From the NCBI GenBank assembly GCA_038147155.1, contig JAYQTA010000002.1:259595-323594 (forward strand): DNA of 64,000 nucleotides. The letters are read 5' to 3'. Made by a program: the position numbers and the translations under genes. Below the pieces are notes generated by a model, which was given only the letters and a program-made list of their open reading frames with translations, made no database searches and was not told the origin of the DNA. This stretch comes from Candidatus Australimonas brisbanensis (GTDB lineage: Bacteria > Chloroflexota > Dehalococcoidia > Lucifugimonadales > Australimonadaceae). Numbering within the stretch: position 1 is the stretch's first letter; the number at the start of each line of letters is the position of its first letter. Positions 59,845 through 60,495 of this stretch are shown piece by piece.

Positions 59845-60495
59845 CTAAACGGCTTTGAAGTCGCCCCTCGCCCGGCGCGTCATGTACTGGGGGCTGGAGC
59901 GGGCCCTGAATCGCTCTCCGCCGAAGCGCTTGAGCCAGGTGGCCAGCGGCAAAAGGTTCTTCTCGAAGGCGGGGTCGAACCCCTCCCACCGGCGTGCGTG
60001 CTCTTCAGACCTGAAGAGGTTCATGCGCGCTCACTTGTAGGCGAAGTCGCCCGGCGTGCCCAGCTCGGAGTCTGCGTAGCCCACGATCGTCGCGGGCTCC
60101 TGCTCGACCGACTCACCGTCGCGCACCGCGACGTGGATCGGCTCGCCACAGCACAAGCACGCGGTGTCGATGTGGACGGTCTTACCGGGGAAGAGCCAGC
60201 ACACGGCCAGCGCTTCGAGCCCTCACTGGGCGAACCAGCGCTGGTTGCCGTCGATGCTCACCCGATAGGCGTTGGGCAGTGAGGAGAAGGGGGCCAGGGA
60301 GACCAGCACGTCCTGCCCCGGCTCCATCCACCCCGGCAGGCCGGACTCGACCAACTCGTGCAGCAGGCCACGCGCCTGCTCCAGCGGCACGCCCAGCGTG
60401 GAGGCGAGCTCCGTGTAGTGCGGCGCGCGGCCGGTCTCGACGAACGAGCTCATCACCGCGTAGTAGGTCCTATCCAGCAGGTCCAGTTCGCTCAT
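59845..60495 (-). CDS. MerB-like (alkylmercury lyase family) protein with two in-frame UGA codons at the catalytic Cys positions; candidate selenoprotein
   Basis: Single 217-codon frame. ATG 60495 lies 5 nt after GGAGC. TGA at 60225-60223 and 60033-60031. Terminal TAG at 59847-59845. See findings for the alignment to MerB C96/D99/C159. Confidence 0.65.
60001..60018 (-). other. SECIS-like stem-loop 2 (after the second UGA)
   Basis: RNA CUCUUCAG-GU-CUGAAGAG, a perfect 8-nt inverted repeat. Apex CAGGUCUG. The GU lies at +24/+25 from the U of UGA. Confidence 0.6.
60190..60216 (-). other. SECIS-like stem-loop 1 (after the first UGA)
   Basis: RNA GAAGCGCUGGC-CGUGU-GCUGGCUCUUC: 10 pairs (2 G-U) and one C/U mismatch. 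The loop GU lies at +22/+23 counted from the U of UGA. Confidence 0.45.

Follow-up and report, generated by a model that had tools for sequence, protein, structure and literature searches.

A probable selenocysteine insertion element within a MerB-like gene of Candidatus Australimonas brisbanensis

The selenocysteine (Sec) insertion sequence (SECIS) of Escherichia coli fdhF is a hairpin whose loop residues G23 and U24 have described roles (PMC8659212). The broader bacterial SECIS consensus (bSECISearch criteria, summarised in PMC13188914) describes a stem of 4-16 bp and a loop of 3-9 nt, with 16-37 nt from UGA to loop; it further calls for G at loop position 1 or 2, usually followed by G or U, and a minimum free energy no higher than -7.5 kcal/mol (PMC13188914). 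Among proteins resembling MerB, the 2022 and 2026 reviews and NCBIfam hold a single selenoprotein: SaoL, encoded by the SAO locus of mainly anaerobic Firmicutes, which carries one Sec in a CU dipeptide (Haft & Gwadz 2022, bioRxiv 10.1101/2022.07.06.499078; NCBIfam NF040728). Here we describe a further candidate from a 64,000-nucleotide stretch of contig JAYQTA010000002.1 of Candidatus Australimonas brisbanensis, the whole of which we call the window. A hairpin at positions 60018-60001 of the window (minus strand) very probably (about 90%) is the SECIS for the UGA at 60033-60031, which would encode Sec155 of a MerB-like organometal lyase.

The minus-strand sequence around this UGA reads ...UAC AAG UGA GCG CGC AUG AAC CUC UUC AGG UCU GAA GAG CAC.... 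Its layout is UGA GCGCGCAUGAAC CUCUUCAG GU CUGAAGAG, ending at 60001: the arms CUCUUCAG (60018-60011) and CUGAAGAG (60008-60001) enclose the dinucleotide GU, and 12 nt separate the UGA from the stem. The first-pass annotation of this DNA, made from the letters alone, had described a perfect 8-nt inverted repeat with GU at its apex, and CTCTTCAG and CTGAAGAG are indeed exact reverse complements. Steric constraints rule out a loop of 2 nt; in the RNAfold structure the innermost pair is open, leaving 7 bp and a GGUC tetraloop. The codons named for the hairpin were NLFRSEE; L-F-R-S-E-E do encode the stem, but the Asn codon falls outside it.

The likeness to the fdhF element is close. Both hairpins lie in the coding sequence directly 3' of a Sec UGA, and they share the GGUC loop, the closing A-U and C-G pairs, and the octamer CAGGUCUG. 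The earlier numbering of that octamer from the U of UGA as +1 (C21-A-G-G24-U25-C-U-G28) is correct on the window sequence. So is the fdhF element given for comparison: of 5426 complete E. coli genomes, 5419 have a match to its 43-mer TGACACGGCCCATCGGTTGCAGGTCTGCACCAATCGGTCGGTA under fdhF (5420 records match, 5413 of them at 99% identity or more). In fdhF, CAGGTCTG occupies +20 to +27; in the window the octamer lies one nucleotide farther from the UGA, just as claimed, so the critical G and U stand at +24/+25 as against +23/+24. The octamer identity, true as it is for the window, is nonetheless peculiar to this genome and not a property of the family. The family consensus, CCGGUCGG, has a C-G closing pair where fdhF has A-U, and the likeness between them extends no further than a GGUC loop set on a closing pair.

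Does the hairpin recur in relatives? A scan of GTDB, taking one genome per species, found 457 of them; the best 80 loci were analysed, and 79 could be parsed. A second sample comprised 78 metagenome loci, ranked with a Cys-containing query, for a total of 157 orthologues (158 sequences with the window). These orthologues span at least six phyla. The hosts of the best 80 GTDB loci belong to Dehalococcoidia/SAR202 (Chloroflexota), Binatia, Desulfobacterota, Methylomirabilota, Acidimicrobiia, and Poribacteria, and the clade is present in soil metagenomes too. In tblastn, matches to the best 80 loci cross both in-frame UGAs of the gene, running from residue 1 to about residue 211. The second UGA site (site 2) is TGA in 79/79 GTDB-species loci and in 78/78 metagenome loci, with the same hairpin in the same register. 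The orthologue comparison proposed in the first-pass annotation therefore came out in favour of the element: the same 18-nt hairpin, at the same distance, in 157/157. This conservation is not a search artefact, because the patterns used to find the loci either lay in other parts of the gene or were fully degenerate.

The strongest evidence concerns synonymous positions. The 18 nt read CTC TTC CGG TCG GAA GAG in 114 of the 158 sequences. The spacing U-x-x-AUG-AAY-hairpin is invariant (158/158), with 19 nt from UGA to loop, and the apical loop is GGUC in 152/158 and GUUC in 6/158. Codon entropy for the hairpin residues L, F, R, S, E, and E is 0.19, 0.10, 0.48, 0.10, 0.17, and 0.58 bits, respectively, whereas in the rest of the gene Leu, Arg, and Ser show about 2.0-2.3 bits, and Phe and Glu about 0.8-1.0 bits; the flanking Asn and His codons each show 0.98 bits. 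Synonymous variation thus drops exactly across the six hairpin codons, which demonstrates purifying selection at the RNA level on the sense strand.

Pairing tells the same story. The stem is paired in 98.7% of alignment cells, compared with 43-59% when the partners are slid. A covariance check, also proposed earlier, finds two stem base pairs that covary, one of them in the window. At pair 22-27, 76 distinct sequences have C-G and the window alone has A-U, by two synonymous changes (CGG->AGG and UCG->UCU). This compensatory pair indicates that the hairpin has been under selection since divergence from all 157 relatives. Pair 16-33 is C-G in 61 sequences, U-A in 8, and U-G in 3, a change of Leu to Phe being accompanied by synonymous GAG->GAA (Fisher p = 1e-7); probably only one or two independent events underlie this association.

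The two UGA codons, 91 and 155, align with catalytic Cys96 and Cys159 of the solved MerB and MerB2 structures (PDB), and the window protein scores 68.4 bits against the Pfam MerB family (PF03243), for which the gathering threshold is 27. An AlphaFold2 model was made for P0014, a natural relative with Cys at both sites, rather than for the window protein (pLDDT 92). Only MerB and MerB2 structures match this model significantly in the PDB (TM about 0.6-0.68), so the region past the second UGA belongs to the fold. The features by which a selenoprotein gene may be recognised (Haft & Gwadz 2022) are all present: Cys in MerB, in P0014 and another relative (P0016), and in distant homologues; TGA in 157/157 orthologues; and homology continuing to the carboxyl terminus. 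When UGAs of the window were tested for strong coding signal to either side, only these two passed, besides one match judged to be the antisense frame of a real gene; the test reveals no other selenoprotein gene in the window for a same-genome SECIS comparison. Reassignment of UGA to Trp or Gly was ruled out, because the homologous residues are Cys and TGA terminates 19 other open reading frames of the window. A sense reading of UAG was dismissed on inspection, the same-frame open reading frames parted by TAG being separate genes.

Bacterial genes with several Sec codons need one hairpin per UGA. The first UGA in this gene also is followed by a hairpin, for which the family pattern is GCGCUGGCG-GUN-CGCUGGC; six to seven pairs form, two of them invariant G.U wobbles. 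In the window the apical pair of this hairpin is broken (C21 x U25), resulting in the 5-nt loop CGUGU, and an outer helix (GGG...CCC / GAAG...CUUC) can extend the structure to about 60222-60187. Sequence variation at this first site (site 1) provides a control within the family, since 63 of 80 sequences have TGA there and 17 of 80 have TGC or TGT (window counted). Among the 63 Sec forms 97.8% of cells in the first hairpin are paired; among the 17 Cys forms the figure is 74.8%, no better than shuffles, though the peptide EALAVRW is retained. The GU loop is gone in 8 of these 17. The decay in Cys forms means that the hairpin tracks the UGA. In one locus (L058:3271-3315), the two wobbles of the site-1 stem, U.G and G.U, have become C-G and G-C, with Leu->Pro and Trp->Arg in the protein; in this locus conserved residues have been given up while RNA pairing is maintained.

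Cys at site 2 is very rare. A search for further Cys155 orthologues, seeded with P0014, returned almost only UGA-truncated proteins, and the metagenome scan with the Cys query yielded TGA in 78/78 loci. In P0014 itself (Cys/Cys; locus L082) the peptide is altered at the hairpin, and the loop is now GCUC. Distant homologues with Cys at this site have variable peptides there, such as MNIFVSKE, MKLFASEA, and INFFSSKE.

Table 1. Positions in the window of the gene, its two in-frame UGA codons, and the associated hairpins.
Feature	Positions	Strand	Description
Coding sequence of 216-residue MerB-like putative selenoprotein	59845..60495	minus	ATG at 60495; TAG stop at 59847-59845; predicted Sec91 and Sec155
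First in-frame UGA (predicted Sec91)	60223..60225	minus	Corresponds to MerB Cys96; motif WFAQ-U-GLE
First putative SECIS hairpin, core	60195..60211	minus	GCUGGC-CGUGU-GCUGGC; six pairs including two G.U wobbles; loop GU at +22/+23
Second in-frame UGA (predicted Sec155)	60031..60033	minus	Aligns with MerB Cys159; TGA in 158/158 sequences, window counted
Second putative SECIS hairpin	60001..60018	minus	7-bp stem CUCUUCA/UGAAGAG; apical loop GGUC at 60011-60008; encodes Leu160-Phe-Arg-Ser-Glu-Glu165

These features suggest a familiar mechanism. As the ribosome nears the second UGA, the 7-bp stem would display its GGUC apical loop 19 nt downstream. The loop residues G24 and U25 (equivalent to fdhF G23 and U24) would be bound by the carboxyl-terminal domains of SelB, itself carrying GTP and Sec-tRNA(Sec). 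This contact would hold the ternary complex at the A site, such that the UGA is read as Sec instead of stop, and the ribosome would next melt the hairpin while translating Leu-Phe-Arg-Ser-Glu-Glu. Presumably, the first UGA (60225-60223, Sec91) is served by its own hairpin. The element had been called a bona fide SelB-binding element embedded in the coding sequence. Its reading as a SECIS is supported by the recoding context, conservation, codon entropy, covariation, and Cys homologues; SelB binding, like Sec insertion itself, is what we infer from these. With respect to the consensus, the hairpin is downstream of an in-frame UGA, has a 4-nt loop that starts GG and a 7-bp stem, and shows the 19-nt spacing. 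As a bacterial SECIS it is in itself of an ordinary kind but unusually clean: the synonymous-site footprint is sharp; the family provides its own Sec/Cys control; and the window carries a compensatory pair.

Several observations weigh on the other side. By itself the hairpin does not exceed chance expectation: perfect 8-bp inverted repeats with spacers of 2-8 nt number 45 in the window, compared with 23 +/- 6 in shuffles, and the folding energy of the 52-nt stretch is unremarkable at 70% GC (z = -0.43 versus shuffles). Only the comparative data and its location behind an in-frame UGA make it significant. Measured against the cut-off of -7.5 kcal/mol, the 18-nt hairpin core (-6.9 kcal/mol) is slightly short, although this depends on the segment, since the orthologue consensus core reaches -9.1 and the 52-nt extended fold -16.4. 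The E. coli type of element combines a bulged U17 with loop G23/U24 at 11 nt from the UGA; the window stem, a perfect 7 bp that starts one nucleotide later, has no counterpart of the bulge. Rfam yields nothing at gathering thresholds for the whole window, and at E<=10 over 59900-60300 gives two chance-level matches only (E about 9), neither overlapping the hairpin. Most stem pairs are invariant, hence uninformative, and the covarying pairs represent few independent events.

One relative, P0016 (locus L081; JGI 3300067036, gene 563-1273), also belongs on this side. It has TCA at site 1 and TGT at site 2 (Ser/Cys), each one nucleotide from TGA, and both hairpins are nearly intact, with two weakening changes. 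The first-pass annotation had named Cys orthologues carrying the same hairpin as evidence that the structure is unrelated to recoding. The distant Cys homologues cannot encode the hairpin, but this Ser/Cys form keeps both. A recent conversion is the best reading of it; one would expect a MerB-type enzyme with Ser at its first catalytic position to be inactive.

Finally, the Pfam scan finds no selA, selB, or selD among the 57 open reading frames of the window, and ARAGORN, in looking for tRNA-Sec, found no tRNA in it. The alternative that survives best, itself very unlikely, starts from this lack of Sec machinery: the gene would be a relic in this genome, the UGAs would terminate translation (leaving a pseudogene, or three small open reading frames with reinitiation at AUG 60024), and the hairpin would be a fossil. 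A conserved AUG does follow the UGA by two codons, and nonsense codons do occur in this sequence. The neighbouring gene for a 1-Cys peroxiredoxin (63225-62557, minus strand) has an in-frame TAG at 63162-63160 (GEI*FHQWLGDSW), in the conserved N-terminal region and spanned by the Pfam AhpC-TSA match; possible explanations are a nonsense mutation, a pseudogene, or a sequencing error. However, the three segments of the MerB-like gene, as cut by the UGAs, have kept their frame, high G+C at third codon positions (0.88-0.94), and all family-invariant residues, and the compensatory stem pair was fixed in the window lineage. Moreover, no Shine-Dalgarno-like sequence is seen ahead of the AUG in the window or in orthologues, and without Sec the enzyme would have neither catalytic nucleophile. 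Sec decoding does exist in hosts of the family, as UBA1141 (L027) and 10f4566d (L033), with 49 and 46 selenoproteins, respectively, are among the most selenoprotein-rich bacteria (PMC13326102).

Less likely still, the hairpin could be a by-product of the conserved peptide NLFRSEEH, through its Leu-Phe...Glu-Glu codons, with no RNA function. The peptide MNLFRSEEH is nearly invariant, its F-x-S core is common to MerB, and such hairpins are frequent in the window. Nevertheless, a peptide cannot fix six-fold and two-fold degenerate codons across six phyla while the adjacent Asn and His codons vary, and the codon entropy already largely refutes this explanation. It also leaves unexplained the paired synonymous changes that preserve base pairs. 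Moreover, the same peptide positions vary in Cys-type homologues, which suggests that the RNA constrains the peptide and not the reverse.

Least likely of all, a conserved RNA or DNA element with another role unrelated to recoding (ribosome pausing, mRNA stability, or a protein-binding DNA palindrome) has nothing specific in its favour, even if a perfect inverted repeat could in principle work on the DNA level, and it conflicts with the orthologue G.U pairs and the two invariant site-1 wobbles, which form in sense RNA only and so argue against a DNA-level palindrome, with the canonical SECIS distance of both hairpins from their UGAs, and with the decay of the first hairpin once its UGA becomes a Cys codon.

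With the hairpin taken as a SECIS, the protein that it would serve can be compared with SaoL. The two share the PF03243 fold, Sec at the position of MerB Cys159 (almost obligatory there), and database truncation at the UGA. Nevertheless, this clade is set apart from SaoL by sequence, motif, Sec number, catalytic acid, context, and taxonomy. The window protein scores 39.1 bits against NF040728, where the cut-off is 140. The residue preceding the second Sec is K, R, A, S, L, or N in the clade (Lys in the window protein), so there is no CU dipeptide, and the nine-gene SAO neighbourhood is absent. Most clade members have a second Sec at the Cys96 position. The third residue after that site is Glu in place of MerB Asp99, and is 100% conserved in the family. 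In contrast to the hosts of SaoL, those of this clade belong to Chloroflexota, Desulfobacterota, Binatota, Methylomirabilota, Acidimicrobiia, and Poribacteria.

Comparison with MerB and MerB2 (PDB 3F0P, 3F2F, and 5C17) reveals the same fold (in the P0014 model) and the same active-site positions, but with a catalytic Sec/Glu/Sec instead of Cys/Asp/Cys. The clade also has an additional, invariant CxxC motif (C113 and C116 in the window protein, encoded at about 60159-60148, minus strand), to which nothing in classical MerB is comparable. This motif could be a metal hand-off or structural site. Against the MerB equivalogs NF009710 and NF033555, the window protein scores 29.7 and 21.7 bits (cut-offs 193 and 200, respectively). 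There is no mer operon near the gene, and the Pfam scan of the 57 open reading frames finds no mer gene in the window. NCBIfam holds no model for this clade. We found no account of a two-Sec MerB clade in the literature, our coverage of which is incomplete, and these genes may already be listed in BSepDB.

Public databases store these genes mostly in pieces. The matches in a protein search fall into two classes: proteins of about 155 residues that end right before site 2, some of them named 'organomercurial lyase' by NCBI, and full-length JGI proteins with Trp at both sites, for which the DNA has TGA (translation by code 4). In all, 1362 clusters at 50% identity were found, fragments included. 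In an exhaustive representative search, the stored fragments have about 90 residues when they stop at site 1 and about 155 when they stop at site 2; pieces from between the two sites have about 63, and those past site 2 about 75. The public protein entries P0001-P0045 and P0165-P0312 are UGA-cut fragments, proteins of about 155 residues that NCBI names 'organomercurial lyase', or JGI code-4 Trp forms.

The gene neighbourhood varies. In the window, a YCII gene lies downstream, and a divergent ArsR and AHSA1 pair also is present; no window neighbour recurs among the 80 orthologue loci. A modABC-like transporter is near the MerB-like gene in 12-15 of these 80. In L002, L006, L027, L033, and about 10 other SAR202/Dehalococcoidia loci, the gene adjoins a modABC-like ABC transporter and a regulator with helix-turn-helix and periplasmic-binding domains, a context that the window does not have. 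Positions 1-57000 of the window encode functions for aromatic and organic-acid catabolism (three Rieske/LigXa-like oxygenases, two cupin dioxygenase-like genes, several NMT1-type binding proteins, class II aldolases, and F420/luciferase-like enzymes), along with a Fur-ZnuABC cluster. This region yielded neither mobile-element nor mer-operon genes. Among the 62 stop-to-stop open reading frames with high G+C at third positions (in a window of 70% GC), the stop is TAG in 38, TGA in 20, and TAA in 4. So large a share of TAG stops is unusual in GC-rich genomes; TAG is also the stop of the selenoprotein gene.

The hairpin may also point to something larger. On what we judge to be an even balance, it marks a large, apparently uncurated clade of MerB-like organometal lyases that comprises 457 GTDB species and is characterised by a U-x-x-E...U active site, with Sec effectively obligatory at site 2. 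The main value of the finding lies here: a MerB-type enzyme with both metal-binding catalytic cysteines present as selenocysteines, and conserved in numerous uncultured phyla from ocean, sediment, and soil. Gene callers split the gene into proteins of about 90, 63, and 75 residues or resort to code 4, so mis-annotation is systematic. If this is true, surveys of carbon-metal bond cleavage (methylmercury demethylation, for example), merB surveys, and genome annotations would miss or undercount the clade. The two hairpins together provide a ready covariance signature for re-annotating such genes. Moreover, if the enzymes do cleave carbon-metal bonds, a diselenol site would represent a distinct chemistry for the turnover of organomercury or other organometals.
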